Positions 4,688 to 50,054 are shown, counted from the first letter of the stretch. The stretch: DNA of 64,000 nucleotides from an uncultured Actinomycetota bacterium (GCA_963834315.1 CAWIAY010000002.1:4730-68729), one strand, 5' to 3'. A program made the numbers and translations. Notes: generated from the letters alone by a model not told the origin.

Positions 4688-7222
4688 TCACCGCGGCGGC
4701 TGCGCCCCCGCCTTCACCCGAGCCAACAGTCGACGGGTGTTGGCGTCGTCGACCGGGCCGTGGAGGAGTCGCACCCGTCGCCACCGTTCCTCGAGCTGTC
4801 CTGCGCTCGGGGTGTCGAGCAGACCGTCGAGGGCGGCCATCAGCTGGTCGAAGTCCTGGCAGACGGGACCGGGGAGGACGCAACCGAGGTCGTAGAAGAG
4901 ATCCGGGACCTCGCCGGTGAGATAGCTCACCACGGGTCGGCCGGTGACCATGAACTCCGTGGCGCGCGACGACCAGTCCGTGAGCATGGCGACGGCGACC
5001 CTGTCGTGCACCACGGTGCTCGGGAACTGTCCGTAGCCCAGACGGATGGACGCGAGCGGCTCCATGAGGTGTGACAACCTGCGCGAGGTGTCGGCCGGGT
5101 CGTCGCGGAAGCCGAGCACCACCGACTCCTGCTCGCACCAGCGGTTGACCCGCCGCGCCTGGTCGTCCGTCAGGGTCCACCCCCGCCCGTGCTCGAAGCT
5201 CGGGACGACCAGGACGAGGCGTCGATGGTCCAGCAAGGCACGCAGCTCACGCTCCTCGGACTGCAGCGCCGGGGGAAGTACGTCGAAGGGGCTCACCACC
5301 AGGTCGTTGCGGGGCGCGCCGGTCGGCCAGACGTCCTCGAACCCCAGCGGGAAGAAGGCGGCTGAGGCGGCCAGTCGGGCCAGTCCGTCCGAGCTCACGA
5401 CGGCGTGGCATCCCGAGGCATCCTCGAGCTCTTCCGTCGTGGCGGCGAGGTCGGCACGTCCGTGCCGGACGAGCGAGGGCGCACCGACGTTGATGAAGCG
5501 GTGGCGCCTCGGTGAGATCGGATACGTGACGCAGGTTCGGGGCTTGTCCGTGACGAAGACGGTCCCGGACCTGACCAGGTGCAGCTGTCCCTCGGAGCTC
5601 CTGAGCGGGTGGACCACGACGTTCGCGCCGTCAAGGAGCACCCGGCGCGTCCTGGTGAGGACGATCTTCTTGATGGAGGGATCCTCGCGCACGGACTCGA
5701 ACACCGCGCGCTGGTCCCCCGACAGGAGGTGGTCTCGGGGGGAGACGGGAAAGGCCCACCAATGGTCGAACTTGGGCGCGTATCGGTCTTCCTCGACCAG
5801 CGCGCGACCGACCAGCGGGGTGGGCTGGTCGACCCGCCCGTCGTCACCGGTGACGAGAGAGAAGCTGCGGTGCAGGCTGTCCGCGGCCGACACCCTGAGC
5901 AGGTTCCGCTCCACCTTGTCCAGGTCCGCCTCGGGGGCGAGGGCAGCGACTCGTTCGCGCCAGTTGACGAGGTCCGGGACGTTGCGGCTGTTCTCCGAGA
6001 GGAAGTTCCGCTTCAGCAGGGGGAAACCGAGGCGAAGGAGGTCGAAGTACTGCGCGGTGTAGAGCGGGTGGAACGGGTACAGCTCGTCGATGAACGTGCT
6101 GAAGTCGAAGCCCCTGCACATCAGGTAGCGACTCAGGCCGATCTCGTACTTGTAGATGACGAGGACCTTCTGCGACTGGGGCGCGACGGCGTCGAACCGT
6201 TTGCGGAAGCCCGGGTCCACAACGACCGGGCGCCGCAGAACCAAGAAGTAGGAGCTGATGTGGAGGTGGTCGAGCTCGCTCATGAAGCGCTCGCCGATCA
6301 TCTCGGCCTTGGCCTGCGCGATCGGCAGGGGTCGTCCCCCGTTGGAGTCGCGCTCGAAGTCGTGCCTGGTCATCTGCAGGCCCCACCAGTCGCACGGCCG
6401 TTGATCCATCTCGTCGAACACGTCCTCGAGGGAGCGGACGAGGAAGCCGCTGTCGTTGGCCAGGATCACCTCGTCGTAACCGTCGAGGACGTCCCAGCCG
6501 ACGAGGTCGCGGGCGAGCGTGGCGTAGGAGCCGAAGTCGTAGGCGCCGTGCGGCAGCGCCCAGGCCTGCCGCGTCACCTCGCGGAGCTTGAGCAGCTCGG
6601 CGGCGTGGATGAACCCGTCGGCGAGGTAGTACACGTCGGCGAAGCGACTGAGCTCGCGGAGGTAGTCGACGACGTAGTCGTCGATCATCCCGTCGGGGTC
6701 GTAGCCGGCGAACAGGCACACCCGTCGTGGCGTGGCCCCGCTCGGGTAACGCGTCGGGGGGCGGGTCTCGTGTCGCGGCGGGACCGGGTCAGCGCTCTCA
6801 CGCCGTCCGAGCACCAGGAAGTGCAGGAGCGGGTTCACCTCGTCCGTGGCGGGATCCAGGTACTCGGACCAGTACCACCACACGTCGAACGCTGTGCTGG
6901 GGTTGCGCAGCAGGCGCCAGCCAACCTCGCAGAAGTGAACGAGAGGATCGAGGTCACCTGCTCGCACGTCCGCGTTGGCGCGGCGGTAGGCACGCGCGTC
7001 GAACAAGTCGCTTCCCCGGATCACCTCGACCGCGCAGCGTGCCGAGAGCTCCTCGCCGAGCCGGTCGTCCTCACCGCCGGACGGGAGTCCGTCGGTGACC
7101 GCTTCGAGGCCGGACTCCAGAAGCTCGTCGACGAGCGCCCGGGCCTTCCCCGGCGCCTTCTGCAGCTGCGCCCACCGCGTGACGAACCGGGACCACCGCA
7201 GGAGGAACTCGGCCTGCCTCAT
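4688..7222 (-). CDS. Multidomain glycopolymer protein: FDxxWY repeat + RgpF (rhamnan synthesis F)-like domain + degenerate TagF-like domain
   Basis: RgpF-like motifs YDFGSY, ILANDS, DWWG, HISSYF, YEIGLS, FPLLKR. TagF-like C-terminus lacks WHG (INVGAP) and the second His (GFRDDP). ATGA overlap with the upstream paralog. Confidence 0.75.
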   Translation of the reverse strand: MRQAEFLLRWSRFVTRWAQLQKAPGKARALVDELLESGLEAVTDGLPSGGEDDRLGEELSARCAVEVIRGSDLFDARAYRRANADVRAGDLDPLVHFCEVGWRLLRNPSTAFDVWWYWSEYLDPATDEVNPLLHFLVLGRRESADPVPPRHETRPPTRYPSGATPRRVCLFAGYDPDGMIDDYVVDYLRELSRFADVYYLADGFIHAAELLKLREVTRQAWALPHGAYDFGSYATLARDLVGWDVLDGYDEVILANDSGFLVRSLEDVFDEMDQRPCDWWGLQMTRHDFERDSNGGRPLPIAQAKAEMIGERFMSELDHLHISSYFLVLRRPVVVDPGFRKRFDAVAPQSQKVLVIYKYEIGLSRYLMCRGFDFSTFIDELYPFHPLYTAQYFDLLRLGFPLLKRNFLSENSRNVPDLVNWRERVAALAPEADLDKVERNLLRVSAADSLHRSFSLVTGDDGRVDQPTPLVGRALVEEDRYAPKFDHWWAFPVSPRDHLLSGDQRAVFESVREDPSIKKIVLTRTRRVLLDGANVVVHPLRSSEGQLHLVRSGTVFVTDKPRTCVTYPISPRRHRFINVGAPSLVRHGRADLAATTEELEDASGCHAVVSSDGLARLAASAAFFPLGFEDVWPTGAPRNDLVVSPFDVLPPALQSEERELRALLDHRRLVLVVPSFEHGRGWTLTDDQARRVNRWCEQESVVLGFRDDPADTSRRLSHLMEPLASIRLGYGQFPSTVVHDRVAVAMLTDWSSRATEFMVTGRPVVSYLTGEVPDLFYDLGCVLPGPVCQDFDQLMAALDGLLDTPSAGQLEERWRRVRLLHGPVDDANTRRLLARVKAGAQPPR

Positions 7223-9774
7223 CCTCGACCCCCCCCGGCGTAGAGCCTCTTCACGCGATCGACCACGCGGACGGCGTTCTGGTCGTCGAGGTGGTCGAAG
7301 AAGATGCGGCGGCGCCCCTCGTACGACGGGGATGGCCCCTGTCGTGTGCCGTCGAACAGCAGGTCCATCGCTCGCGACAGCTGCTCGAAGTCGGCACAGA
7401 CGGGTCCCGGGAGGACGTCCTCGAGCTCGTAGAAGAGCCCGCGCTCGTCGTCGCGGTAGCGGTCGTGGTCGTAGGCAAAGCTCACCACCGGTCGTCCCGT
7501 GACCAGGAAGTCGACCAGACAGCTCGAGTAGTCGCTCACCACCGCGCTCGCAACCCGATAGACGACCTCGACGTCGGGGAACCTGCCGGCGGACAGGTCG
7601 AGGACCCCGAGATCCTCGAGCTGGCGGGTGTAGGCGTGCGCCGTGTCCGCCATGTGCTCACGGACTCCGAGCACGGCGCCGTGCCGGCGCTGCCACTGCG
7701 AGAGCCACTCGAGCTCGCCCTCGGAGAAGGTGTAGTAACCCTCTTCCTGGTCATCGCGGAAGGTGGGGCAGAAGAGCACGAGCTTGCGGTCTCCGACGAG
7801 ATCGCGGAGCTCCGCCAGCTGCCGACGCAAGTCCCCCGGAAGGCGGGACTCGGCCCTCAGGACGAAGTCGAAGCGCGGCAGTCCGGTCACCCACATGTCG
7901 CGGATCGAGAGCGGCGCGAACGCCGCCGCCATCGCGAGACTGTCGACCCGGGAGGAAGCGATGACGGCGCGCGAGCGGGAGTTCTCCAGCAACAGCTGGT
8001 CCCGGACGTCGTCGATGCCGTGCGAGGCGAGACCGAACCGCTTGAGCGGGATGCCGTGCCAGAGGTTGACGATGTTCCGGCGCTCGGGGAGGAGCCGGAA
8101 GCCGACATTGATCCGGGCACCGTGCTTGACGAAGAGCTGACCTGCCCGCAGGAGGTAGTGCTGGCCCTCAGGACTCTCGAGGGGCACGGTCACCACGTTC
8201 TGTCCCTCCAGCTCCACCGCGCGGCTCCGCGTCAGCACGATCTTCTTCACCGACGGGTCATCGGCCACCGCTTCGAAGACGGCTCTCTCGTTCCCCGTGA
8301 GCTGGTGGGTGAAAGCACAGACCGGGAAGGCCCACCAATGGTCGAACTTCGGCGCCCAGCGGTCTTCCTCGACCAGGTCGTCCGGCTCGAGCATCTCGGG
8401 CACCACCGGGCTACCCGCCTCGTCGGCGGTCACGCTGTGGGCCCGCCGCATGACGTCGTCGGCGGAGCTCCGCACGAGGTCCAGCTCGATGCGGCGCAGA
8501 TCAGCGCCCGGAGAGACGGCACGGAGCCGCTCCTTCCAGTCGGCCAGGTCGGGCAGGAGGGCCGGGTTCTCGGCCAACAACCGACGGGACACGAACGGGA
8601 CCCCCTTCGCGACGAGAGCGAACGGATCGGGTCCCAGGAAGGGGTCGTCGCCGACGTGCTCCCCCAGGAAGGTCGCAAGGCAGTGACCACGAGCAGAGAG
8701 CAGTCGCGTCAGGTTGATGCCACGCCACGGATCGGCGAGCGACCGCTGCTCGGTCGCGCACACCTCGAAGAAGCGCCGGACCTCCACGTCCTCCAGCACC
8801 GCACGTCGGAGACCGACGAGGGGCCCGGACCACGAGAAGGCCTCGAGGTCCGTCTCGTCGAGGACGCGGAGCCCCGCGTCGTCGTGGCCGTCCTCGGCGG
8901 TCCCTGCCCCAGAGGTGGCGATCGACCACCAGTCCGAGGGACGGGTGGCCATCTCGGCGAGCAGAGGCTCCAGGTCGTCGACCAGGAAGGCATTGTCCCC
9001 GGCGAGCAGCACCTCGTCGTAGTCCGCGAGCCGCTCCCACCCCACGAGCCGGGCCGCCAGCCGGGCGTGCGAGGTGAGGTGTCCTCCGTCGTGGCGGGTC
9101 GACCAGGCCGCCGACACGTACGGACCGAGCTGCTCCCGCTGTACAGCTCCCATGGAGGAGTCGTCGAGGTAGTACACGTCGGCGTGACGCGAGAGCTCGC
9201 GGACCTGGTCGACCGCAGTGGGGTCCAGCACTCCGTCGCGGTCGTGTCCCGCGAAGAGGCAGGCACGGCGCGGCGAGCTCGGGAGGGTGGTGGCGGGTGC
9301 GGCCCCGGGGTGCGGCAGGGACGGCCGGGTCGCCACTGCCTGCAGGTGTCCGGCCACGACGTAGTGAAGGAATGGGTCGACGTGCTCGCTCCCGGGTCCG
9401 AGGTTCACCCATCGGTACCACCACAGGTCGAAGTCGGCACGAGGACGGCGGAGCTCCCGCCAGCCTCGGCGGCAGAAGTGCTCCAGCGGGCTGCGGCGCA
9501 CCGATGTCCTGGACGGGTCGCGCTCCTCGCCGTAGTCGGACTCGGGCTGGTCGACGATCAGGAGCAGGTCGAGATCCTCGTCGAGCGCGGGACCCTGCCG
9601 GGCGGCGTAGAACTCCGCGTCGAAGTACCCGCTCGCGCGGATCACCTCGATCTCGTCGAACACGCTCAGGACCGGCCAGCGCGCGGGGTCCGGATCGGGG
9701 CTCGAACCGGTGAGCTGCTCGAAGGCCCGGCGTGCCGCCGCGACGTCGGGCGCGGCGACCTGCTCCGCCGTCAC
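7219..9774 (-). CDS. Multidomain glycopolymer protein: FDxxWY repeat + degenerate RgpF-like domain + intact CDP-glycerol glycerophosphotransferase (TagF-like) domain
   Basis: NLWHGIPLK, TGLPRFD, FCPTFR, VREHM and SDYSS are all present. Collinear paralog of 4688..7222, sharing EEDRxAPKFDHWWAFPV. Confidence 0.8.
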   Translation of the reverse strand: MTAEQVAAPDVAAARRAFEQLTGSSPDPDPARWPVLSVFDEIEVIRASGYFDAEFYAARQGPALDEDLDLLLIVDQPESDYGEERDPSRTSVRRSPLEHFCRRGWRELRRPRADFDLWWYRWVNLGPGSEHVDPFLHYVVAGHLQAVATRPSLPHPGAAPATTLPSSPRRACLFAGHDRDGVLDPTAVDQVRELSRHADVYYLDDSSMGAVQREQLGPYVSAAWSTRHDGGHLTSHARLAARLVGWERLADYDEVLLAGDNAFLVDDLEPLLAEMATRPSDWWSIATSGAGTAEDGHDDAGLRVLDETDLEAFSWSGPLVGLRRAVLEDVEVRRFFEVCATEQRSLADPWRGINLTRLLSARGHCLATFLGEHVGDDPFLGPDPFALVAKGVPFVSRRLLAENPALLPDLADWKERLRAVSPGADLRRIELDLVRSSADDVMRRAHSVTADEAGSPVVPEMLEPDDLVEEDRWAPKFDHWWAFPVCAFTHQLTGNERAVFEAVADDPSVKKIVLTRSRAVELEGQNVVTVPLESPEGQHYLLRAGQLFVKHGARINVGFRLLPERRNIVNLWHGIPLKRFGLASHGIDDVRDQLLLENSRSRAVIASSRVDSLAMAAAFAPLSIRDMWVTGLPRFDFVLRAESRLPGDLRRQLAELRDLVGDRKLVLFCPTFRDDQEEGYYTFSEGELEWLSQWQRRHGAVLGVREHMADTAHAYTRQLEDLGVLDLSAGRFPDVEVVYRVASAVVSDYSSCLVDFLVTGRPVVSFAYDHDRYRDDERGLFYELEDVLPGPVCADFEQLSRAMDLLFDGTRQGPSPSYEGRRRIFFDHLDDQNAVRVVDRVKRLYAGGGRG

Positions 9775-10325
9775 GTGCCCGACGTGTCCGCGTCGCGGTC
9801 CGAGCCCTGCTGGAGGAAGTGCAGCAGCGGATTCATGCCGGACCGTCGGACGTCGGGGTGGGCCTCGAGGTACTCGGTGACATCGAACTTGGGACCGGGG
9901 TCACGTCCCTCCTTGTGCCCGTCACGGAGGAAGTGGAGCGCCGGGTCGACCCCGCCTCGGGCGATGTCGAGATTCTGCCGGAGATACCACGCCGGGCGGA
10001 AGTAGCTCGACTGCCGCAGGATCTGGACCTGCTCCCACTCCTGACGACTGATCCGTCCCTGACCTGCTCGGTACCAGGCCCCGCGAGCCCGCTCCCGGGT
10101 CTCCTTGTTGAGGGTGTCGGCCAGCGACTTGGCCAGGATCTCGGACTCCTTCTGGGCCTTCGCCTTCGAGCGACGCAACCGAGCCTGGGTCTCGGCGACC
10201 TCCTCGTAGTCCTGGCGTGCCCGCGCCAGCTCGAGCCGCGTCTGCGCGAGCTCTTCGCGAAGCCGCTCGAGCTCGACTGTTGGGTCGGAGCCATCACGCA
10301 ACGGCCCCTGTGCTGCGGTTCCCAA
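9771..10325 (-). CDS. Hypothetical protein: coiled coil plus stand-alone FDxxWY/HF repeat domain
   Basis: 3' part of the 9771..11438 ORF. TTG start at 10325 after an AGGAG RBS. ELERLREELAQTRLELARARQ coiled coil, then YFRPAWYLRQN..PALHFL..GRDPGPKFDVTEYL..NPLLHFL. GTGA overlap with the next gene. Confidence 0.65.
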   Translation of the reverse strand: MGTAAQGPLRDGSDPTVELERLREELAQTRLELARARQDYEEVAETQARLRRSKAKAQKESEILAKSLADTLNKETRERARGAWYRAGQGRISRQEWEQVQILRQSSYFRPAWYLRQNLDIARGGVDPALHFLRDGHKEGRDPGPKFDVTEYLEAHPDVRRSGMNPLLHFLQQGSDRDADTSGT

Positions 10326-10399
10326 CGAACGTCCTCTCCTCACCGGGGCGGGGTACCGGGCCCGCCGATGACCGCTGACCGTAACACGGGCGTCAGCCC

Positions 10400-11818: not shown

Positions 11819-11861
11819 GCGATGCTAGTAGGGCGCTGCCCGCGCAGCGCACCCGGTCGCG

Positions 11862-15180: not shown

Positions 15181-15214
15181 CACGCGAATCTATCGGCTCG
15201 GCCGCACCCGCAGC

Positions 15215-17233: not shown

Positions 17234-17301
17234 CCGCGCTTGCTCCCCTGATCGTCTGGTCGCGCTGGGCAGGGGGAACGGTACCGGACCGCGGCGAGGA
17301 C

Positions 17302-23252: not shown

Positions 23253-23256
23253 TCCC

Positions 23257-23676: not shown

Positions 23677-23697
23677 CGTCGCCGCGGGCGGTGAGGA

Positions 23698-37478: not shown

Positions 37479-37488
37479 GCATGCGAGG

Positions 37489-38733: not shown

Positions 38734-38776
38734 CGGCCCCGCACGCCGAGCTTGCTCGGGTGCGGACGAGGCCGTC

Positions 38777-39040: not shown

Positions 39041-39067
39041 ACCCCGGCCCCCGGTATCGTGCAGCCC

Positions 39068-40135
39068 ATGTCCCCTGAGCCCGACCACGCCGCCACGGCG
39101 GGTGCCCGCAAGCTCGTGATCGTGACCGGGTCGGGCCGCAGCGGGACCAGCACGGTGACCGGCAGCCTGAAGATGCTCGGCTGCTACATCCCGCAACCGG
39201 AGATCCCCGCGAACGAAGCCAACCCCCGCGGCTACTTCGAGCCCACCTGGACCGTCGAGTTCCAGAAGCGGGTCCTCGCCGACGCCGGCGTGCGCACCCT
39301 CGACGCGCGCCCCGAGGCCTACGAGCTGATGCAGCCGACGTGTGCCAAGGCGTCGTTCCAGGACGAGCTCAGCGCCTGGTTCGCCACCCAGCTCGAGGGC
39401 CAGCAGATCGTGGTGAAGGACCCGCGCTCGTTCTGGCTGCGCAACCTGTGGGTCCCCACCGTCGCCGGCCTCGGCGTCGACACCGTCTTCTTGACCATGC
39501 TGCGCCACCCGGCCGAGGTGGTGGGCTCGCGCGACATGCACTACCTGAAGAACGCCGACGACGACCGTCGGCTGGCGCGCGAGACCGGCAACCTCGGTGG
39601 CTGGGTCAACGTGGCCCTGACGAACGAGCGGGTCGGGCGCGAGAGCCCCAGGACCTTCGTGCACTACACCGACATGATCAGTGACTGGCGTTCCGCGATG
39701 CGCGAGGTCGGGGACAAGCTCGGGCTGTCGTACGACGCCGACCTCAGCGGTGACGCGCACCACCCGATCGACGACTTCATCGACTCCAGCCTCCACCGCT
39801 CCCAGGTGGGCTTCGACGACCTCGACGTGCCCGCTCAGCTCGTCGAGATCGCTGCCACGGTGTGGGAGAACCTCGACGCCCTGGCTCGGGACCCCTACGA
39901 CGAGGCCGCCATGAAGAGCAACGACGAGATGCGCGAGGCCTACGGCCAGCTGCACACCTACTCCGTCGCCCTCAGCCAGGACCACACCAACTACTCCGTC
40001 GACGTGGCTCGGGCGCAGGCCCGCCGCCGCGTCACCCGGGAGCTCCAGCAGCAGGCCCCGGCGGCCGTGTCCTCGCTGCCACGGCGCGTCGTGCGCAAGG
40101 TCCGGTCGCTGGCCCACCGGAGAGCATCACGATGA
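39068..40135 (+). CDS. Sulfotransferase-like P-loop protein
   Basis: IVTGSGRSGTSTVTG, NPRGYFEP, VVKDPR, MLRHPAEVVGS, FVHYTDMISDW. Leaderless TATCGT-N7-ATG; ATGA overlap with the next gene. Confidence 0.75.
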   Translation: MSPEPDHAATAGARKLVIVTGSGRSGTSTVTGSLKMLGCYIPQPEIPANEANPRGYFEPTWTVEFQKRVLADAGVRTLDARPEAYELMQPTCAKASFQDELSAWFATQLEGQQIVVKDPRSFWLRNLWVPTVAGLGVDTVFLTMLRHPAEVVGSRDMHYLKNADDDRRLARETGNLGGWVNVALTNERVGRESPRTFVHYTDMISDWRSAMREVGDKLGLSYDADLSGDAHHPIDDFIDSSLHRSQVGFDDLDVPAQLVEIAATVWENLDALARDPYDEAAMKSNDEMREAYGQLHTYSVALSQDHTNYSVDVARAQARRRVTRELQQQAPAAVSSLPRRVVRKVRSLAHRRASR

Positions 40136-42765
40136 CCGACCCGCAGGTCCCCAGTGTCACCGGGACGGTGCGCCAGCGGCTCGCCCTGCGCACCCGGGCC
40201 CGCGCCGCCCGTGAGGCGGTCACGTCCGCTCGCTACGCGCGCTGGCGCGAGCGGCCCGTGGCGCCGCGGACGGTGATGTACGAGTCCTTCTCCGGCAACG
40301 GGATGCTCGACAACCCCGAGGCCATCTTCCGGCACCTGCTGACCCAGCCGGACATGAGCGACCTGCAGCACATCTGGGTCCTCGACGACCCGGCGAAGCA
40401 TCCCGAGGTGCTCGAGGAGTTCGCCGACAACCCGCAGGTGAGCTTCGTCAAGATCCTCTCCGACGGCTACTTCAAGGCCCTGGCGACGTCGCAGTACCTC
40501 GTCAACAACGCGACCTTCCCCCAGCAGCTGGCCAAGCGCCCCGAGCAGACCTACCTCAACACCTGGCACGGGATCCCCCTCAAGCACATGGGATTCGACC
40601 TGCCCGGTGGCGGCGCGCTCTCGCGCAACGTCATCCGCAACTTCCTGCAGACCGACTTCGCGATCAGCGCCTGCGGGTTCATGACCGAGACGATGTACCG
40701 GCGCGCCTACCGACTCCAGGGGATCTTCCGCGGAGCCGTGATCGAGGAGGGGCACCCGCGCACCGACCGTCAGGTCGAGGCGGTCAAGGATCCCACTGCC
40801 GTGATGGAGCTGCTCGAGGAGCGCGGCTGCCGGATCGACGGCCGTCACGTCGTGCTCTTCGCGCCGACCTGGCGCGGTGACTCCTTCCAGGACCCGCGGG
40901 TCAACGCCGGGCAGCTGCTGGCGACGGTCAAGGACCTCCAGAAGTCCCTCGACCCGACGACCCACGTGGTGCTGCTGAAGGTCCACCAGGCCGTCTACGA
41001 CGCGGTCAAGCAGCGCGTGGGCGAGTGTGACTTCCTGGTCCCCAACAGCGTCCCGACCAACCAGACCCTGGCCGTCGCCGACCTCCTCGTCACCGACTAC
41101 TCCTCGATCTTCTTCGACTTCCTCGCCACCGGGAGGCCGGTGGTGCACTACGTCCCCGACCTCGACGACTACCGGTCGGGGCGCGGGCTCTACCTGGACG
41201 AGACCGACCTTCCCGGCCCGGTCTGCGCGACCATGCCCGAGCTCGTCGAGGCCGTCGGTGCCGGCCTGGCCGCGGGCCCCGCCGACCGGTCTGCCGAGCT
41301 CGCCCAGGTCTACAACCCCAAGGACGACGGGTCGGTCTGCGAGCGGGTCGTCGACATCGTGTTCCGTGGACACGAGGACCCCTACACGGTCCACCGTGAC
41401 TTCGGCACCGACAAGGAGACGCTGCTGGTCTACCTCGGCAGCCTCAAGACGCAGGGCATCACCACCTCGGCGCTCAACCTGCTGCGCAACCTCGACTACG
41501 ACAAGTACGACGTGACCGCGTTCTACACCTTCTCCAAGGGTCGTGACCGACTCAAGAACGCTGCCCTCGTGGACCAACGCGCGCGCGTCATCCCCCGGGC
41601 GATCCAGTTCAACGGTTCGCCGGCGCGCGTGCGCCGCGAGACCAAGAAGCTGATGGAGCACGGCCTGCCCGAGCAGCTCAGCGCCGATCACGTGAGGTTC
41701 TGGACCGACGAGTGGCAGCGGGTCTTCGGGCACGCCCGGTTCGACCACCTGATCGACTTCAGCGGCTACGGCTGCTACTCGCCCTTCCTGTTCTCGGTGA
41801 CCGAGGCCAAGCACAAGTCGATCTGGCTGCACAACGACATGTACGCCGACATGCAGCGTGAGACGGTCGGCGAGAAGCATCTCGAGGACCGGTTGCAGGC
41901 CGTGTTCACGACGTACAAGTACTTCGACCACCTCGTCTCCGTCTCACCTGCACTCGAGGCCATCAACCGGACCTCCCTCGCCGCCTTCGCACCGCCGGAC
42001 CGGTTCACTCATGCGGTGAACACCATCGACGGGGACCGGATCCTCCAGCTGTCCGGCCTGACTGCGGCGCAGGCAGCCGCCAAGGCCGACGGTGAGGACG
42101 TCGGGTCCGTCCGGCCCCGCGACCTGGTCGAGATCGACCCGACCAACCTCACCTCCACGATGTCCGTCCTGCTGGAGCACTTCGCTGTGGAGGACGTGCT
42201 CCGCGAGGCTCGTGGGCGGCTGCGGCTGGCCAACCAGCCGGCCGCCACGGCGGGCACCGTCACCTTCGTGACGATCGGCCGGCTCTCGCCGCCGAAGAAC
42301 CACACCCGGATGATCAAGGCCTTCGCCAAGGTCCACGAGCGCAACCCGCACATCCGGCTGGTGATCATGGGCTACGGACCGCTCGAGCAGGACCTGCAGA
42401 CCCTCATCAACAGTCTGGGCATGGAGTCGGCGATCACCCTCGCCGGACTCGTCGACAACCCCTACGCGATCCTCGCCCAGAGTGACTGCTTCGTGCTGTC
42501 GAGCGACTACGAGGGTCAACCCATGGTGATCCTCGAGGCGCGGACCCTGGGGCTCCCCGTCGTCACCACGGCGTTCTCCTCGGTCAGCGATGCCGTCCCC
42601 GACACCGCGGGACTCGTCGTCCCCCAGTCGGTCAAGGGCGTGGCGAGCGGGTTGCAGGCCTTCCTCGACGGCTCGGTCCCGGCCGAGGTCCTCGACACCG
42701 TCGACTACAACACGCTGGCCATGCGCCAGTTCGACGCCGCGATCCACCATCGCCCCGGCGGCTGA
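40132..42765 (+). CDS. Bifunctional CDP-glycerol glycerophosphotransferase (TagF-like) / GT4 glycosyltransferase
   Basis: NTWHGIPLK, GHPRTD, FAPTWRG, KVHQ, TDYSSIFFD. C-terminal TIGRLSPPKNH, SDYEGQPMVILEA. Confidence 0.88.
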   Translation: MTDPQVPSVTGTVRQRLALRTRARAAREAVTSARYARWRERPVAPRTVMYESFSGNGMLDNPEAIFRHLLTQPDMSDLQHIWVLDDPAKHPEVLEEFADNPQVSFVKILSDGYFKALATSQYLVNNATFPQQLAKRPEQTYLNTWHGIPLKHMGFDLPGGGALSRNVIRNFLQTDFAISACGFMTETMYRRAYRLQGIFRGAVIEEGHPRTDRQVEAVKDPTAVMELLEERGCRIDGRHVVLFAPTWRGDSFQDPRVNAGQLLATVKDLQKSLDPTTHVVLLKVHQAVYDAVKQRVGECDFLVPNSVPTNQTLAVADLLVTDYSSIFFDFLATGRPVVHYVPDLDDYRSGRGLYLDETDLPGPVCATMPELVEAVGAGLAAGPADRSAELAQVYNPKDDGSVCERVVDIVFRGHEDPYTVHRDFGTDKETLLVYLGSLKTQGITTSALNLLRNLDYDKYDVTAFYTFSKGRDRLKNAALVDQRARVIPRAIQFNGSPARVRRETKKLMEHGLPEQLSADHVRFWTDEWQRVFGHARFDHLIDFSGYGCYSPFLFSVTEAKHKSIWLHNDMYADMQRETVGEKHLEDRLQAVFTTYKYFDHLVSVSPALEAINRTSLAAFAPPDRFTHAVNTIDGDRILQLSGLTAAQAAAKADGEDVGSVRPRDLVEIDPTNLTSTMSVLLEHFAVEDVLREARGRLRLANQPAATAGTVTFVTIGRLSPPKNHTRMIKAFAKVHERNPHIRLVIMGYGPLEQDLQTLINSLGMESAITLAGLVDNPYAILAQSDCFVLSSDYEGQPMVILEARTLGLPVVTTAFSSVSDAVPDTAGLVVPQSVKGVASGLQAFLDGSVPAEVLDTVDYNTLAMRQFDAAIHHRPGG

Positions 42766-42778
42766 GCCGCTCAACCCC

Positions 42779-43354: not shown

Positions 43355-43449
43355 AACTCCGAGTCAAGCACCGGGCCGGGGCGGGCGCACCTCGGCAGGG
43401 CGGCCACGTGGTGGTCAGGGGGTCGGGCGACCCGGAGGGCGGCGCCGGA

Positions 43450-46400
43450 TCAGGTCCACTCCGCGGCGACGACCCGCTCTGCGGCCCGGCCGTCGTCGAG
43501 CGGCAACAGCTGTTCAGCGAGGCTCCGTCGACCCTCGTAGACCGTGTCGAGGCCGTCAACCAACCACGGCACCAGCTCCTCGGTGCTCTCGGCGACGGGT
43601 CCCGGGGGCGTCCGGGTCACCTCGAGGAAGAAGCCGACGTCCTCGAACTCCTCGCGGTCGGGCAGGAAGAGGCCCACGGGCGTGTCCGAGGCGAGCACGT
43701 CGACCAGCAGCGAGGAGTAGTCGGTGACCACTGCATCGGCGGCGAGCACCAGGTCGGAGAGCTCGGGGTAGAGCGTCACGTCGAGCATCCCCGACTCCGG
43801 CGCGAGCACCTGACGGTTGGCGCTGTTGGGGTGTCCACGCAGCAGCACCGTGAGTCCGGGCACTGCCTCCTGCAGGACAGGTACGTCGATGTCGACCACC
43901 TTGGCGCGTCGCGTGTGCGCGCGGATCGCCTGGCGGGTGGTGGGCGCGACCAGCAGCACCGGTCCGTCGTCCAGCCCCAGCCGGCGGCGTACGTCGGCAG
44001 CACGCGCCTCCCGGCCCGCGGCCCGGTAGGCGTCCACGGCAGGATGCCCGACCTCGCGCACCTCGCCGGCGAACCCGGTGGCCTCCCGCATCCACGCCGT
44101 CGCCTGCGCGCTGCCGGTGTAGAGCACGTCCCAGGCCGCCACGTCGCTGTCGAGGCCGCGGATGCCTGCCGGACCGACGCCACCCGCCTCGACCGCGTGC
44201 CCGAACCGCAGCAGCGGAGTCCCGGACCACAGCTGAACCAACCGCTGACCCGGCGCCTTCTCGAAGATCCGGGGCATCGTCTGGTTGGTCAGCACGTGCG
44301 ATGCGGTGGCGAGGTGGTCGAACCAGTCCGCCGACTGGCGGAGCACCGGGGTGGTGCCCGATGGTACCGGGAGGCTCTCGTCCCGCAACGCCCAGACCAC
44401 CTCGAGATCGGGTCGCTGGTCGCACAGCGCCCGGACGACCGCTCCGCAGCCGTGCAGGAAGCCGCGCCCGACGAACGAGTCCACCAGGACCACGGGTCGC
44501 CGAGCCGCGGTCCGGCCGGTGGCATAGCGCCCACGGCGGAGCACCTCTTGACCGTGCCTGGTGTGGGTCTCGGTCTCGCTGCCGCGACTGCGCTCCAGGA
44601 CGAGCACGTTCCCCTCGCCGGCCCGCAACGACCACTGCGCGGACCCTGACGGCGCGTCCGCGGCGACGAGGGACGGGGGCGCCACCACCTCGCGTCCCTC
44701 CCCAGCCATCACGGTGTAGAGATCCCGGGGAAGCGGGAGCGCAGCATCGTCGAGAGGCGAGGCCCGGGTCAGCGGGATGGCGGCCGTCCAACGGCCGGAC
44801 TCGACCGTCAGTGGCAGCGCGGCCCGGAACCTCGGTCCCACCAGGGCCAGCTCATCCGGTGCGGAGCCCACCAGCGTTCCCGAGAGGACCAGCTCCTCGG
44901 GACCGAGCGTGACCTCCTCCGCCTCGAGCAGCCCCGGCAACGAGGACACGCGCACGAACCCGTCGGTGGCCAGCAGCACCCCCCGGTCGCCGGGGAGCCG
45001 GGTGACGCCGAGGTAGCCCAGGGTCACCAACGGTTGCGTGGTGTCGTCGCCGGTGTCGACCTGGATCCGCCGACCGGCGAGGGAGGTGACCGCGTGCGGT
45101 ACGTCGAGAAGGACGCGCCAGGTCGACGCGTCCGGGTCCACCTGACGCACCTCCCCGGCCGGCTCGTCCTGCACCCGCAGCGCCTGCGGGGTGATGCCGG
45201 GCGCGGAGCGCAACAACAGGACGAGACCGTCGGGGTCCGACTCCCACCCGGTCAGGACCACCCAGTCGCGCCGCACCGTCACCGTGACCCCCAGCCGGTC
45301 CGACCAGCCGGCCTCGAGGAGTGCGTCTCCGGACAGCCGTCGTTGCGGCACGAGCGCCGAGCCGTGCTCCGCACGCTGGCTGAACACGGAGTCCCGCGTG
45401 CTGCCGAGCGCCGTGCACTCGACGCGGGTCTGCCACACGGTGCGCGCGCCGGTCGACCGCTCCACCAGGTCCTCGATCGGCACCTCGGCCACGAAGCCGT
45501 CGCCGCGGTGGTCCTCGTAGTGGCGGTCGGCGAAGACGTTGGCGTCCTCGACTCGCAGCCCCCGGGTCGACACCCGCAGGAGCTCTCCCCCGGCCCTTCG
45601 TCGGAGGGTCAGCGTGACCTCGTGCGCATGGTCTGAGTCGACGTAGCGCGTCAGCCCCACCCCCCGCACCCGCAGCGCCGCGTCGTCCCAGCCGAGGTCG
45701 TCGAGCCTGGCCTCCACCAGCAGGTCCTTGTCGCCGACGACCAGCAGCTCCGGCGGGATGTCCTGCGGGAGTCCGAGAGCCTCGGTGTCCGCCACCAGGC
45801 CGAGTCCTTCGGCGCGCACCGGGATGTTGCCGGAGAGCAACGGCGACTCCAGGAGCCGGGTCAGCGTCTCCCTGCCGCCGTGGACCAGCGCCCAGGCCGC
45901 CAGCCGATGACGTAGGTCGACGTTGACCCACGCCTCGGCAGGTGCTCCGTCGAGGACGCGGGAGACGGTCTCGACCAGCGTGGCGTAGTAGTCGTCGTCG
46001 GCATCGAGGCTCGCGCGGATGTAGGCAAAGAGGTCGAACTCGAAGACCTTGCCGTACCAGCCCTGCAGCACCGCGGGACTGCCGCTCTCCCGCACCATCG
46101 TGGCCACCTCGTTGACGGCGAGCAGCCGGTCGGCGAGGTCGTCCTTGCGCGCCTTCTGCTGGGTGATGGACGAGCCGTCGCGGCGCGACCGCCACCGATA
46201 GACGATGTCGGGCAGGATGTCGAACCCGCGGGCCCTCAAGTAGGCGCGGGTGATCGGCACCTGGTCCTCGTAGCGCACTCCGACCGGGAAGCGCAGCCCG
46301 ATCTCGTCGACGAAGGCGCGCCGGAACACCTTGGTGCAGGCGAAGACGTTGGCCATCGCCTCCGGCGCCTCCTCCAGTCGGACGTCGCGCCGGAGCACCT

Positions 46401-46929
46401 GGTGGAGTCGCCGCGACCACGGCTTCTGCACGTAGGTGGTCGCGCTCTGCTGTCGCTCCAGAGCGCCGACGGAGAAGTCCGAGCCGCTTGCCCGCAGGCT
46501 GCGCACGTGCCGTGCGATGGCGTAGTCGGGCAGGGTGTCGTCGGAGTCGACGAAGGTGATCAGCTCGCCGCGTGCCTCGTCGATGCCCCGGTTGCGAGCT
46601 GCCCCCAGCCCGGCGTTGGCCTGTCGCACGATCCTGATCCGGTGGTCGCGGGCGGCGTACCGCTCGACGATGGCCATGGAGCCGTCCGGCGACCCGTCGT
46701 CGACGACGACGACGTCGAGGTGCGGATAGGTCTGACCGAGGATCGAGTCCAGACAGTCCTCGATCCACTCCTCGACGGCGTACACCGGGACGACGACCGA
46801 GACCGTCGGCTCTCCGGAGACAGCCGGGTGGCTCGGCGGGGCGGACTCTGCCCGGGCGGGCTCGCCGCGGGCGCGCAGGCGCGAGACCAGTCGTCCGGCC
46901 AGTCGACGTGGCGCGCCCGGCTCCTCCAC
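43450..46929 (-). CDS. GT2 (intact) + linker domains + degenerate TagF-like domain
   Basis: VVPVY..VDDGSPD..AARNRG..FVDSDD..YEDQVP. TagF-like part reads QLWSGTP, GHPAVD, VAPTTR, TDYSS. Start placed at GTG 46929 after GAAAGGGAG; the ORF track start is 46965. Confidence 0.82.
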   Translation of the reverse strand: MEEPGAPRRLAGRLVSRLRARGEPARAESAPPSHPAVSGEPTVSVVVPVYAVEEWIEDCLDSILGQTYPHLDVVVVDDGSPDGSMAIVERYAARDHRIRIVRQANAGLGAARNRGIDEARGELITFVDSDDTLPDYAIARHVRSLRASGSDFSVGALERQQSATTYVQKPWSRRLHQVLRRDVRLEEAPEAMANVFACTKVFRRAFVDEIGLRFPVGVRYEDQVPITRAYLRARGFDILPDIVYRWRSRRDGSSITQQKARKDDLADRLLAVNEVATMVRESGSPAVLQGWYGKVFEFDLFAYIRASLDADDDYYATLVETVSRVLDGAPAEAWVNVDLRHRLAAWALVHGGRETLTRLLESPLLSGNIPVRAEGLGLVADTEALGLPQDIPPELLVVGDKDLLVEARLDDLGWDDAALRVRGVGLTRYVDSDHAHEVTLTLRRRAGGELLRVSTRGLRVEDANVFADRHYEDHRGDGFVAEVPIEDLVERSTGARTVWQTRVECTALGSTRDSVFSQRAEHGSALVPQRRLSGDALLEAGWSDRLGVTVTVRRDWVVLTGWESDPDGLVLLLRSAPGITPQALRVQDEPAGEVRQVDPDASTWRVLLDVPHAVTSLAGRRIQVDTGDDTTQPLVTLGYLGVTRLPGDRGVLLATDGFVRVSSLPGLLEAEEVTLGPEELVLSGTLVGSAPDELALVGPRFRAALPLTVESGRWTAAIPLTRASPLDDAALPLPRDLYTVMAGEGREVVAPPSLVAADAPSGSAQWSLRAGEGNVLVLERSRGSETETHTRHGQEVLRRGRYATGRTAARRPVVLVDSFVGRGFLHGCGAVVRALCDQRPDLEVVWALRDESLPVPSGTTPVLRQSADWFDHLATASHVLTNQTMPRIFEKAPGQRLVQLWSGTPLLRFGHAVEAGGVGPAGIRGLDSDVAAWDVLYTGSAQATAWMREATGFAGEVREVGHPAVDAYRAAGREARAADVRRRLGLDDGPVLLVAPTTRQAIRAHTRRAKVVDIDVPVLQEAVPGLTVLLRGHPNSANRQVLAPESGMLDVTLYPELSDLVLAADAVVTDYSSLLVDVLASDTPVGLFLPDREEFEDVGFFLEVTRTPPGPVAESTEELVPWLVDGLDTVYEGRRSLAEQLLPLDDGRAAERVVAAEWT

Positions 46930-47009
46930 TCGAGCTCCCTTTCGTGGACCCTCATGAACTGCCACGGCAGCCTATCGAGTCGCCTCGCGGGGACCGCAGC
47001 CCCGTCGCC

Positions 47010-50000
47010 TCAGATCTGGGAGAGCAACCAGTCCACGGCGCGCACGGAGGCCCGCCCGTCGTCCCAGGGGTTGAACCTCGCCCGGAGGTCGGCACGCGCC
47101 CCCGCATGGACGTCCTCCGCCGTCAGGGCCGCGGCCACCTCGTCGGTGTCGGCAACCATCGGGCCCGGCGCCGCCTCCTCGAGGTCGAAGTAGAAGCCGC
47201 GCTCCACGTCGCGGTACTGCTCGAGGTCGGGAACGAGGAGCAGCTGTGGCTTGTCGGTGAGCGCGAAGTCGAACATGACCGAGGAGTAGTCGGTGACGAG
47301 GACGTCGGCGACGAGGTACAGGTCCGCGATGTCGGGGTAGCGGGTGACGTCCCGGATCCGCGCGTGGTCGATGAAGACATCGGCCTGGTGGGTGCTGTTG
47401 TAGTGGCCCCGCACGAGGACCACGGCGTCGGGCACCGAGCCGATCAGGGCCGGTGCATCGAGGTAGAGCGGCTTGGCGTCGCGCACCCCGACGTACTCCC
47501 GCCACGTCGGGGCGTACAGCACGACGCGGTCGCTGTCGCTCAGCCCGAGCCGGGCACGCACCCGGGTGCGTACGACGTCGGCGCGTGTCGGGTCGAGGAG
47601 CACGTCGTTGCGGGGGTAGCCCACCTCCAGGAACCGCCCATCGAAGCGGAACGCGCTTCGGAAGTGCTCGGAGCAGAACGGACTCGGCGAGATCATCGCG
47701 TCCCAGCCCGCTGCCTGGAGAGCCATCCGGCGTCGATGCCGCCAGGTTGCGAAGTCGCCGGGCCCGCGATCCTCCCCGATCCGCTTGAGAGGGGTGCCGT
47801 GCCAGGTCTGCAGGTGGATCTGTCCGGTCCTCTTCTGCCACCAGTGCGGCGCGCCGGCATTGCTGACGAGCACCCGCGCCCGCGCGAGGGCGTCGTACCA
47901 CCGTTCGGAGCGACGGGGCAGCGCGCGCGTGCCCTCAGGCACGACGACGCTCGGATCGTCCACCACCCAGGCGAGGTCGAGGTCCAGCCCGCGAGCCATG
48001 ATCTCCCGCCCGATGGCCCCCGGACTGTCGCCCACGGAGCGTCCGCGGAACGTCTCCAGGAGCACCAGCGGCGAGGAGGACGTGCCGGGTGCGGCGTAGA
48101 CACCGCTCTGCAGCCGCTGCTGGTCGTAGGCGCTCCGCTCGTCGTGGCCCAGCGGAGCCGACACCGTCAGCGTCGGGCCCTCGCTCGAGTCGGACCTGAC
48201 CACTCGCAGGCGCTCCCCGATCAGCTCGCCCTGGGGGGATGCGGCGTCCCAGACCGCCTCCACCGCTGCGTAGCCGGAGGCAGCGGCCTGCTCGACCTGG
48301 ACCACGTAGCGCCCCGCCGGCAACAGCACGCTGCTGCCGAAGAGGTCCGTGACCAGGGGAAGACGCACCGTCCACGAGCCCGGCACACCCTCGGTCGGTA
48401 AAGGGACCGCGGCGGCGGCACCCTTGGTGCCGGCGAGTCGCACCGAGGCCGGCACGCTCGCGGACCCGGCGCCGGTGAGCACCAGCACCGGTTCCGCGCC
48501 GGAGTCGTCCAGCTCGACCGCGCGCAGGGTCGCCACGTCGTCCGGCGGCGGCGTCGTGATCGCCACCTCGTGAGAGCCGGCGCGCCGTCCGAGGTGCACG
48601 TCGACTCGCCAGGGACCGTCGGGTCCCCCCGGTTCGAGCCCGGGTTCGAGTCGCGCGGTGAAACCGACGTCGGCGCGATCCTCCCAGGCCCGTCGCGCCC
48701 ACAGGTTGAGGTCGGGGTCGGCCCGGGGCTGCACGTGCATCGGCACCTGCCGCCCGTCCGGGGAGGCGAGCGTGACCGAGGGCGGGGTCGCTCGCTCGCC
48801 GTACTCCACGAAGGCGGCGCCGTTGATGCGGAGGCTGCCGGTGTCGTCGCGGCGCATCGTCCCCACCACCGTCCGGAGGACCCGGTCGACCTGCTCGATC
48901 CGGCGCACTGCGTCGGGAACGGGAACAGCGAGGCCGGCCGGGAGCCGGACCACCTGGGCGCCCTCGGCCGAGCGCTCGCAGGGCAACCCGTGCGGGTTGT
49001 CGGCCAGCAGGTCCTGCATGAGCGCGAGGTCGTGCAGCGAACCTTGCGAGGCCCGGCTCAGCATCCGGGCAGCGACCGGGACGTCGGCCAGCGCTCCCGG
49101 CCCGGTGTCCGCGACGAGGTCGCGCACCAGAGGGGAGAGCAGCTCGAGGGTGCGCTGGCCGCCGCCGATGGTGTCGACGAGCAACCCGGGCAGCACATGC
49201 GTCAGGGTCAGGACCAGCCACCGTCGGTAGATCGCGGGGTCCGTCGCGGCCACGAGCCGCGCCACCTGCCGCAGTGCGCCGACCCGAGCCGCCACCACGG
49301 AGGGACGGAAGCGGGCTTGTTCATCGACCGGGAGGGACGCATCCCGCGCGTGCACGACGTACGCCGGACCGGGAACCACCTCGAAGCTGGTGGAGGCCAG
49401 CAGCATCCGGACCGCCGGCACCTCGCGGGCCGTCCAGTCGGCGACGGACTCACCGACGGCGCGCCAGGCCTGGGTGCGGAAGAGCGATCCGACCAAGTCG
49501 GCGCCGACGACCGCGTCGGGACACGACCCCAGGGTCTGCACGGAGAGCCGCCCGGCGAAGAGGGTGCCGACCCACGGACGTGGCCGGATCACCCCACCCC
49601 GCGCCGTCGCGACCGGTCCGAGCGCCAGCTGCGAGTCCGATGTCTCCAGGGCCTGGACCAACGACCCCAGGGCACCGGGCTCGACCACGTCATCGGCGTC
49701 CGCGAAGGCGAGGTAGGTCCCCCTGGCCGCGGCCACGGCCCCGTCGACGCCGGCTCCGTCCAGCGGCAACGCGCGCACGCGTCGATCCGTCGACCGCGCG
49801 GCAGCAGCGGCTCGCTCGGCAGCGGGGTCCAACGGCGCCAGCAACACCTCGACCTTGTCGTGGCCGGCGTCGAGGAAGGACGCGACGCAAGCGTCGAGGA
49901 AGTTCGCCGGTCCGTGCACCGCGACGACGACGCTCACGACCGGGCCGGTCGCAGTCCACTGAGTGCGGGCACGCTCGGCGGTTCGCGCCGCTCGGCGGCG

Positions 50001-50054
50001 CAGGGGACCCAGCAGACTCGTCGCGGAACGTCGGACTCGGCTCACGCCGGTCAT
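47010..50054 (-). CDS. Degenerate GT2 + linker domains + intact TagF-like CDP-glycerol glycerophosphotransferase
   Basis: QTWHGTPLKRIG, GYPRND, YAPTWRE, RGHY, TDYSSVMFD are intact. The N-terminal GT2 lacks DDGS, RN.G and ED motifs. Confidence 0.84.
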   Translation of the reverse strand: MTGVSRVRRSATSLLGPLRRRAARTAERARTQWTATGPVVSVVVAVHGPANFLDACVASFLDAGHDKVEVLLAPLDPAAERAAAAARSTDRRVRALPLDGAGVDGAVAAARGTYLAFADADDVVEPGALGSLVQALETSDSQLALGPVATARGGVIRPRPWVGTLFAGRLSVQTLGSCPDAVVGADLVGSLFRTQAWRAVGESVADWTAREVPAVRMLLASTSFEVVPGPAYVVHARDASLPVDEQARFRPSVVAARVGALRQVARLVAATDPAIYRRWLVLTLTHVLPGLLVDTIGGGQRTLELLSPLVRDLVADTGPGALADVPVAARMLSRASQGSLHDLALMQDLLADNPHGLPCERSAEGAQVVRLPAGLAVPVPDAVRRIEQVDRVLRTVVGTMRRDDTGSLRINGAAFVEYGERATPPSVTLASPDGRQVPMHVQPRADPDLNLWARRAWEDRADVGFTARLEPGLEPGGPDGPWRVDVHLGRRAGSHEVAITTPPPDDVATLRAVELDDSGAEPVLVLTGAGSASVPASVRLAGTKGAAAAVPLPTEGVPGSWTVRLPLVTDLFGSSVLLPAGRYVVQVEQAAASGYAAVEAVWDAASPQGELIGERLRVVRSDSSEGPTLTVSAPLGHDERSAYDQQRLQSGVYAAPGTSSSPLVLLETFRGRSVGDSPGAIGREIMARGLDLDLAWVVDDPSVVVPEGTRALPRRSERWYDALARARVLVSNAGAPHWWQKRTGQIHLQTWHGTPLKRIGEDRGPGDFATWRHRRRMALQAAGWDAMISPSPFCSEHFRSAFRFDGRFLEVGYPRNDVLLDPTRADVVRTRVRARLGLSDSDRVVLYAPTWREYVGVRDAKPLYLDAPALIGSVPDAVVLVRGHYNSTHQADVFIDHARIRDVTRYPDIADLYLVADVLVTDYSSVMFDFALTDKPQLLLVPDLEQYRDVERGFYFDLEEAAPGPMVADTDEVAAALTAEDVHAGARADLRARFNPWDDGRASVRAVDWLLSQI

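Follow-up and report, generated by a model that had tools for sequence, protein, structure and literature searches.

We analyzed a 64,000-nucleotide stretch of DNA from an uncultured Actinomycetota bacterium (GCA_963834315.1, CAWIAY010000002.1:4730-68729; hereafter the window, with positions counted from its first letter), which has a G+C content of 70% and whose proteins have their closest homologues in Nocardioides, Aeromicrobium and, by name, other Nocardioidaceae. The window carries four large genes on the minus strand, arranged as two tandem pairs, P1 followed by P2 (pair 1) and P3 followed by P4 (pair 2). Each encodes a protein in which a domain derived from a glycosyltransferase (GT), of the RgpF type in pair 1 and of the GT2 type in pair 2, precedes a TagF-like domain; the TagF domain alone is common to the two pairs. 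An earlier interpretation made from the sequence alone (the sequence-only reading) had proposed that, in both pairs, the upstream paralog retains intact TagF motifs next to an eroded glycosyltransferase domain and the downstream paralog shows the reciprocal loss. This pattern was borne out by Pfam matches, motifs and counts of invariant positions (Fisher p 9e-6 to 4e-14). Below, a domain that retains its active-site motifs is called live and one that has lost them dead.

Catalytic histidines were mapped via alignments in the PDB onto S. epidermidis TagF (PDB 3L7I), in which they are H444, within a QTWHG motif, and H584, within RMHY. H444 acts as the catalytic base, and H584 makes contact with the phosphate of the donor. 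The 3L7J chain has QTWNG at the H444 site and the 3L7M chain has RMAY at the H584 site. The title of entry 3L7M gives H548A, but the alanine sits at residue 584, so that the mutant is H584A and the title apparently contains a typing error. Both histidines are essential in TagB, TagF and TarL (H300N, H433A: negligible activity; PMC10901376) and in Cps7D (H612A, H743A; PMC5974469). Pfam cut-offs were 22.1 bits for Glyphos_transf (PF04464), 25 bits for RgpF (PF05045) and 23.3 bits for GT2 (PF00535). Invariant columns were those at least 93–95% conserved among homologues with both histidines (96 RgpF-TagF and 98 GT2-TagF proteins), and losses at these positions in one domain versus the other were compared for each protein in a Fisher test. 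The YDFGS, NDS and KYE residues of RgpF are presumed to be catalytic from their conservation only. On this scoring of invariant positions, none of P1–P4 has both sites intact.

P1 and P2 are paralogs over their full length, with 39% identity. Glyphos_transf matches P1 with 152 bits over the full domain, and RgpF, with 18.1 bits, stays below its cut-off; 110 of 114 invariant TagF positions are kept, against 40 of 61 in the RgpF-like domain (Fisher p 7e-8), where YDFGS has become GHLTS, NDS has become GDN and KYE is deleted. In P2 the states are exchanged. RgpF scores 72.5 bits and all 61 of its 61 invariant positions are present, while Glyphos_transf reaches 34 bits, exceeding its cut-off only over profile positions 270–358, in the last ~90 residues, and 70 of 114 invariant TagF positions remain (Fisher p 2e-10). 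The KH, WHG, REH and DYSS motifs and the SFAYD...ERG stretch have all been lost, and P2 falls in a clade of 24 members that lack both histidines. Because DYSS, REH and the ERG loop are gone and the donor site is thereby destroyed, the TagF domain of P2, judged from these residues, cannot bind a cytidine diphosphate (CDP)-linked donor in the canonical manner.

The ATG start codon of P2 overlaps the P1 stop codon as ATGA, and a GTGA is shared by the GTG start of P1 and the stop of a small gene that precedes it. The product of the latter has a coiled-coil-like N-terminus followed by two copies of a repeat, F-x3-Y ... (D/N)P-L-x-H-F, which, in P1, P2 and all of the RgpF-TagF family, also makes up the invariant module at the N-terminus. 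It is 38% identical to the N-terminal module of P2 over 81 amino acids (aa; BLASTP E 1e-15) and has no match in Pfam or NCBIfam. A gene of 160–190 aa occupies the equivalent place at five loci from other genomes (L020, L021, L023, L026, L027), and the small protein may be a third component or assembly partner of pair 1.

In pair 2, P3 gives a full-length Glyphos_transf match of 303 bits and a partial GT2 match of 38 bits, which exceeds the cut-off; it retains 69 of 74 invariant TagF positions and 21 of 63 invariant GT2 positions (Fisher p 4e-14). In its GT2 domain, DDGSxDxS has been replaced by LDPAAEA, the NxGLGAARNxG (RN-G) loop has been cut and DADD alone is kept, and a phmmer comparison of P3 with TagF from the PDB yields E 2e-56. 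The sequence-only reading had started P3 at the second ATG, at 50054; this is likely the true start, because it fits the orthologs better than the start of the longest open reading frame (ORF) at 50105. P4 has an intact GT2 domain (122.5 bits; 62 of 63 invariant positions) and a TagF-like domain that still matches Glyphos_transf over its full length (172 bits) and keeps 53 of 74 invariant positions (Fisher p 9e-6). Its WHG motif reads WSG, the lysine of TPLK has become leucine, and PRND, PTWR and RGFY have become PAVD, PTTR and VGFF, respectively. The absence of a catalytic histidine, which the sequence-only reading had claimed for both downstream proteins, holds with a correction: P2 lacks both, P4 the first only. 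Lacking the first of the two histidines that mark active TagF enzymes, neither P2 nor P4 is classed here as an active member of that family. The donor site of P4 is mostly kept, including DYSS, and its TagF domain may bind a CDP-linked ligand or retain some chemistry. Identity between P3 and P4 is 34% for the TagF domain and 24% for the N-terminal part, and the gap between their genes is 44–80 bp, depending on the choice of start.

Table 1. Positions of the paired genes, their domains and motifs, and two associated genes in the window
Feature	Protein	Window position	Strand	Basis
P1, pair 1 upstream member	851 aa	7219-9774	-	ORF, Pfam, motifs
P1 eroded RgpF-like GT-A domain	residues ~166-440	8455-9279	-	motif loss
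P1 intact TagF-like GT-B domain	residues 471-851	7222-8364	-	
P1 TagF motifs WHG; REH		8053-8061; 7654-7662	-	
P2, pair 1 downstream member	844 aa	4688-7222	-	ORF, Pfam, motifs
P2 intact RgpF glycosyltransferase domain	residues 163-448	5879-6736	-	
P2 dead TagF-like domain	residues 479-844	4691-5788	-	
P2 lost His sites, WHG to GAP; REH to RDD		5477-5485; 5099-5107	-	
P3, pair 2 upstream member	1031 aa (longest ORF)	47010-50105	-	ORF, Pfam, motifs
P3 eroded GT2 domain	residues ~55-310	49176-49943	-	
P3 intact TagF domain	residues 671-1031	47013-48095	-	
P3 TagF motifs WHG; RGH		47796-47804; 47403-47411	-	
P4, pair 2 downstream member	1171 aa (longest ORF); called product 1159 aa	43450-46965	-	
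P4 intact GT2 domain	residues 53-320	46006-46809	-	
P4 GT2 motifs DDGS; DSDD		46678-46707; 46537-46548	-	
P4 TagF-like domain	residues 816-1171	43453-44520	-	
P4 His sites, WHG to WSG; RGH kept		44221-44229; 43831-43839	-	
Small gene 5' of P1	~180 aa, start approximate	9771-10320	-	
P5, third TagF-like protein	TagF + C-terminal GT4 domain	39862-42765	+	Pfam, motifs

Reciprocal motif loss is conserved in orthologs, as would be expected if the sequence-only reading were correct. For pair 1, a metagenome-assembled genome (MAG; L001) and a Logan assembly (L021) contain both genes in the order of the window, in the same reciprocal states and with 61–66% identity, and in L021 the genes again share a 4-bp start/stop overlap. 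For pair 2, Nocardioides iriomotensis (L017) and a MAG (L019) carry an OpuAC gene, a P3 ortholog with eroded GT2 and intact TagF domains, a P4 ortholog and, nearby, an ortholog of the third TagF-like protein of the window, P5. The layout recurs at a further locus (L018), where the P3 ortholog is fragmented in the assembly; the P5 ortholog is conserved near the pair at all three loci (L017–L019). All eight P4 orthologs (62–78% identity) have WSG or WTG in place of WHG together with a fully intact GT2 domain, and they have further substitutions in common (K to L, PRND to PxxD, TWR to TTR, RGFY to xGFF), such that the replacement residues at former TagF invariants are fixed in nine of nine clade members.

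In every ortholog the dead domains span their full length in an unbroken reading frame, with 45–65% identity. The sequence-only reading had taken the uninterrupted ORFs as an argument against decay, and the orthologs, which contain no frameshifts, agree with it; by itself the argument is weak, as a spurious antisense ORF of 904 aa occurs in this DNA of 70% G+C. A ratio of nonsynonymous to synonymous substitution rates (dN/dS) below 1 had been named as a check on the dead domains, and pairwise comparisons of the window with its orthologs by the NG86 method gave rough values of 0.16–0.55, with no sign of neutral decay. In P1 the ratios were 0.54–0.55 for the dead RgpF and 0.22–0.23 for the live TagF domain, in P2 0.42–0.45 for the dead TagF and 0.18–0.20 for the live RgpF domain, in P3 0.35–0.39 for the dead GT2 and 0.19–0.20 for the live TagF domain, and in P4 0.16–0.33 for the dead TagF and 0.20–0.29 for the live GT2 domain. 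These ratios indicate that constraint on the dead domains is relaxed yet not lost and that purifying selection persists. Across 47 TagF-dead proteins, many structural invariants are kept at 85–100%, and active-site and donor-site positions at ~50%. AlphaFold2 models of P1 (predicted local distance difference test [pLDDT] 89.7, predicted template modeling score [pTM] 0.89) and P2 (pLDDT 92.8, pTM 0.91) show a folded RgpF-like part in P1 and are confident through the dead domain of P2. The C-terminal domains of both models match TagF and TarL with template modeling (TM) scores of 0.68–0.72 (0.68–0.70 for P2). Fold matches to 3L7J/3L7K have E 1e-20 for P1, for which TagF is the best match in the PDB, and 5e-14 for P2.

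The design, which the sequence-only reading had seen twice within the window, recurs in independent lineages of the RgpF-TagF family. Among 212 family members, 146 retain both motif sets, in 47 the TagF motifs alone are missing, 19 are deviant in RgpF only and none has lost both. As the strict string test for RgpF motif loss over-calls mild variants (P0053, P0065), a lineage was counted as RgpF-eroded when at least 10 of 61 invariant positions were lost. Living genomes present what can be arranged as stages: one protein, live in both domains (L003, L004, L008, L011, L016); two proteins that are both fully live (L007); tandems in which a TagF-dead copy precedes one that is fully live (L002, Aeromicrobium; L005, N. 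ginsengisoli; L015); tandems in which the TagF-dead copy precedes an RgpF-dead, TagF-live one, with 4-bp overlaps (L026, L027, L029); and an RgpF-dead copy followed by a TagF-dead one (the window, L001, L021). The shared order that the sequence-only reading had noted in both pairs is correct for the window, and it is reversed in L026, L027 and L029. Start/stop overlaps of 4 bp (ATGA or GTGA) occur in both arrangements (the window and L021; L026, L027 and L029).

Each heavily eroded RgpF-dead protein has as its nearest relative, in the TagF domain, a different fully live protein (distances 0.12–0.18); no RgpF-dead lineage is closest to another, and the P1 group of the window stands separate (0.36). 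Because the TagF domains are each nearest to a different fully live protein, a single origin of all RgpF-dead proteins is rejected, and the comparison indicates at least four independent erosions of the RgpF-type glycosyltransferase domain. Every one of the six RgpF-dead proteins with recovered context adjoins a TagF-dead, RgpF-live partner, in either gene order. The TagF-dead proteins make up two or more separate clades, among them a P2-like one and one resembling the upstream protein of L002. The GT2-TagF family likewise contains a second clade with WRG or WPG for WHG (ten proteins, nine with Arg and one with Pro), which is sister to the P4 clade. In the search with P3, 75 of 142 scored proteins keep both motif sets, and metagenome contigs commonly contain GT2-TagF paralogs in tandem whose domain states are mixed.

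Two such contigs illustrate further combinations: at L105 (4856-11217) a TagF-live copy without a recognizable GT2 domain is preceded by a GT2-live copy with WQG, and at L065 (1342-8372) a GT2-live copy with FHG stands beside a GT2-eroded, TagF-live copy. A metagenome scan for P3-type neighbors was discarded, as its patterns (TWHG.PLK, VLYAPTWR) proved generic and returned the wider GT2-TagF family at 34–46% identity instead of near relatives of P3.

Taken as a computational case, the evidence for a conserved, recurrent and reciprocal split is strong. We consider it probable that each pair arose by duplication of a bifunctional synthase, combining a GT and a TagF-like domain, followed by complementary degeneration of the domains, that is, by subfunctionalization at the level of domains. 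According to this model, an ancestral wall-polymer synthase would have been duplicated, after which P1 and P3 would have kept only a polyol-phosphate transferase site, with the TagF-type histidine pair, and P2 and P4 only a glycosyltransferase site, an RgpF-type GT-A site in P2 and a GT2 site in P4. The two co-expressed proteins would act on one growing, lipid-linked, teichoic-acid-like chain, to which one partner would add (glycerol-)phosphate from a CDP-activated donor and the other a sugar from a nucleotide sugar, so that together the pair would do the work of one canonical chain. Pair 1 would be co-translated and pair 2 presumably co-transcribed; scans for promoters and terminators between the paired genes gave nothing above shuffled expectation. 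The dead domains would probably be kept as folded, non-catalytic modules that keep the protein at the membrane, bind the anionic acceptor chain or retain the partner within an oligomer. The substrates, the cooperation of both proteins on a single polymer and any complex between them are inferred.

Several observations weigh against this model. The canonical role of RgpF-TagF and actinobacterial GT2-TagF proteins as bifunctional polymerases is itself deduced from their domain content, and the window ORFs that were scanned included no recognized gene for a CDP-glycerol synthase. As dS, at 0.5–1.2, is near saturation, the dN/dS ratios are approximate and likely overestimated, and the input alignments for the AlphaFold2 models of P1 and P2 were dominated by intact homologues, which is a caveat on the predicted folds. 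P4, which keeps most donor-site residues and has a dN/dS in its TagF domain as low as that of a live domain, may still do chemistry. P3-type proteins, with eroded GT2 and live TagF domains, form a broad and old clade (at least 15 clusters at 50% identity), and their eroded GT2 domain could have turned into an ordinary structural N-terminal domain long ago. Finally, TagF-dead proteins occur unpaired. P2-type proteins stand alone at the coaX-lysS locus in N. iriomotensis (L020), a MAG (L022) and N. panacis (L023), and members of the WRG clade stand alone after folB-folK-DUF3180 (L024, L025). Because these and a further TagF-dead protein (L006) are found without an adjoining partner, TagF-dead proteins can work outside a pair.

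A glycosyltransferase fused to a dead TagF domain seems to be a common stand-alone protein type in Nocardioidaceae. The picture appears asymmetric: a GT-dead protein seems to need an adjoining GT-live paralog, and a TagF-dead protein seems to need no particular partner. One MAG (GCA_039915665.1, Nocardioidaceae bin.401) contributes both L006 and L024, a solo RgpF-live/TagF-dead protein and a solo GT2-live protein with a WRG-type TagF domain. In the complete genome of N. panacis (CP077062.1; L023 10001-12559), the solo P2-type gene consists of a 714-aa RgpF protein and a 128-aa ORF that contains the Glyphos_transf end; here a partnerless dead TagF domain seems to be breaking up.

These solo TagF-dead genes at syntenic loci (N. 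iriomotensis, N. panacis and MAGs) fit the view that the members of each pair share a pathway and nothing more. P1 and P3 would then be ordinary TagF-type poly(polyol-phosphate) polymerases or primases with a structural, GT-derived N-terminus, comparable to the N-terminal domain of TarL, and P2 and P4 stand-alone glycosyltransferases that act on a completed poly(glycerol-phosphate) chain and use a TagF-derived domain to bind the membrane or the polymer, with neither a heteromer nor alternating co-polymerization. TagE, TarM and TarS are stand-alone enzymes of this kind, which glycosylate the poly(polyol-phosphate) product of a TagF-type polymerase; they would take the role of P2 and P4, yet they lack a TagF-derived domain and are not paralogs of the polymerase. 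The breadth of the eroded-GT2/live-TagF clade fits this explanation, as does the presence in the window of P5, a third TagF protein with both histidines intact. TagF-like polymerases are also reported to have variable, non-catalytic N-terminal domains, of which that of TarL mediates tetramerization (PMC10901376), a precedent for a structural N-terminal domain. The shared-pathway explanation has to contend with the six-of-six adjacency of RgpF-dead proteins to an RgpF-live, TagF-dead paralog, usually with translational coupling, and with the finding that RgpF has been eroded only where such a partner pre-existed, L002, L005 and L015 representing the prior stage. Erosion only beside a pre-existing partner is predicted by complementation and not by mere neighborhood in a pathway, and we regard an explanation by pathway alone as unlikely, albeit one to be taken seriously.

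Alternatively, P4 might not be half-dead at all, its TagF-like domain still acting as a phosphotransferase or related transferase with another base or acceptor, in which case pair 2 would consist of a bifunctional P4 and a monofunctional P3. The retained second histidine, DYSS and 53 of 74 invariants, the low dN/dS of the domain (see above) and the fixation of its replacement residues within the clade are in line with this possibility, as is a clade-specific histidine in GHPxxD (canonically GYPRND) in nine of nine members, which is the remaining caveat on the deadness of P4. Conversely, the first histidine, whose mutation kills activity in every tested family member, is replaced by Ser or Thr in nine of nine members and by Arg (nine) or Pro (one) in the ten-member sister clade, and several invariants around it have gone too (K of WHGTPLK, R and N of PRND, W of PTWR, R of RGFY). 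A relocated catalytic histidine in the form of the nearby RFGH histidine of WSGTPLLRFGH was also considered and ruled out, as three of the nine clade members have Tyr there. We therefore judge an active TagF site in P4 to be very improbable.

Plain decay, with the degenerate domains en route to loss and the pattern devoid of function, receives almost no credence from us: the dead domains do evolve 1.2–2.5 times faster than the live ones, former catalytic positions are variable among P2-clade and P3-clade members and the N. panacis gene is split, but the intact reading frames in all orthologs, dN/dS below 1 in all four proteins, the retained structural invariants and confident modeled folds, and the absence of any doubly dead protein among the 212 family members all speak against it.

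Complementary degeneration of duplicated synthases leaves two further proposals to be graded separately. That P1 and P2, or P3 and P4, form a stable heteromer, as the sequence-only reading had envisaged with the dead domains as scaffolds, is plausible, with our judgment leaning somewhat against it. Hints in its favor are the 4-bp overlaps, the strict adjacency of RgpF-dead to TagF-dead genes, the oligomeric state of relatives, and precedents in EXT1-EXT2 (PMC9675754) and CHSY-CHPF (PMC13389171), which are described as heterodimers of paralogous two-domain polymerases whose silent GT domains stabilize the active ones. The unpaired TagF-dead proteins at the coaX-lysS and folB-folK loci and the broad P3-type clade weaken the idea, at least in an obligate form. 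On a similar footing, the TagF-like synthases of Nocardioidaceae could be obligate hetero-oligomers with one live and one pseudo domain per subunit, possibly joined by the small upstream protein, a state that would have been reached at least four to five times through a ratchet of duplication, TagF loss and GT loss. If so, bacteria would possess an equivalent of EXT1-EXT2 and CHSY-CHPF, and the synthases would be a natural experiment in the constructive neutral evolution of a polymerase. The logic of these animal systems is that of the proposed heteromer, but the folds and the kingdom are unrelated, and the complex there has been demonstrated by experiment, whereas that of the window pairs would be a prediction; moreover, both domains of CHPF and one of EXT2 are silent, a one-sided loss in contrast to the reciprocal loss in the window.

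The closest known systems are capsule polymerases with a GT and a TagF-like domain in one chain, which build poly(glycosyl-polyol-phosphate) by alternating the two domains (PMC5974469). Cps1B (GT-A and TagF-like) and Cps3D/Cps7D (TagF-like and GT-B) have these building blocks, and two essential histidines, in common with the window pairs; Cps3D matches P3 with E 2e-33, and the models of P1 and P2 match PDB 8QOY. When GT-dead and TagF-dead mutants of Cps1B or Cps7D were mixed in vitro, wild-type polymer synthesis was restored in trans (PMC5974469). In Cps1B and Cps7D a single chain contains both intact sites, and the half-dead forms are laboratory constructs, whereas those of the window are natural, reciprocal, adjacent and conserved paralogs. 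The Cps enzymes serve the capsules of Gram-negative pathogens, in contrast to the RgpF-type and GT2 domains of a Gram-positive actinobacterium and what would be a wall polymer here. The TagF domains of P1 and P3 keep both histidines and nearly all invariants, and the P1 model has the GT-B fold of TagF (PDB 3L7I) and TarL (PDB 8VA1); unlike the window pairs, TagF and TarL have neither a GT-derived domain nor a dead paralog as partner. TarM acts as a separate polypeptide (PMC5974469). A full-text literature search found no paper pairing "CDP-glycerol glycerophosphotransferase" with "pseudoenzyme", and the TagF-like polymerase literature examined contains half-dead versions only as laboratory mutants. 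The components belong to known families (PF04464, PF05045, PF00535), and the pairs are best read as a natural version of the in vitro trans-complementation seen with Cps1B and Cps7D.

The pairs lie among housekeeping genes (lysS, coaX, nadC, nadB and an OpuA-type ATP-binding cassette [ABC] system) and genes for envelope glycans, namely those for large GT2 and GT4 proteins, an RmlA-like nucleotidyltransferase, a UDP-glucose (uridine diphosphate glucose) dehydrogenase, a sulfotransferase-like protein, methyltransferases and DUF6077/DUF6056 membrane proteins. P5 matches Glyphos_transf with 257 bits and Glycos_transf_1 with 96 bits, its GT4 domain being judged by Pfam score, and has both histidines (WHG, KVH); comparison with its orthologs of 878–881 aa suggests that its longest ORF probably over-extends the N-terminus. 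Beside P5 and the sulfotransferase-like gene, inside the glycan cluster, lies a lone NuoD-like gene (Complex1_49kDa, 241 bits; 37489-38733, plus strand), with no other NADH-dehydrogenase subunit seen nearby; this arrangement is kept in L017–L019. NCBIfam offered an equivalog for none of the proteins and no match at all for P2. Some P4- and P2-clade proteins bear public names that are probably wrong, because the catalytic histidine of WHG is replaced: the N. iriomotensis P4 ortholog (P0125; L017 10001-13432) is annotated as [quoted passage not shown], and others as "CDP-glycerol glycerophosphotransferase family protein". Long chance antisense ORFs, which arise because of the 70% G+C, overlap real genes, such as the one at 7291-10005 (plus strand) opposite P1; the real frame is marked by a third-position G+C of 0.85–0.95, and ORF length alone is no proof of a gene here. 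Sequencing runs that contain the locus are soil-metagenome and DNA runs, and the run search found no RNA runs with it.

Enzymes combining a GT with a TagF-like domain are used for making defined teichoic-acid-like and capsule polymers for vaccines, and the rules by which their domains cooperate are still under study. The repeated natural split suggests that the two activities need not share one chain in vivo. The pairs offer pseudo-TagF and pseudo-GT domains with which non-catalytic roles, such as membrane anchoring, acceptor holding and oligomer assembly, may be probed, and they would represent a clean case of domain-level subfunctionalization, with the intermediate stages present in living genomes.

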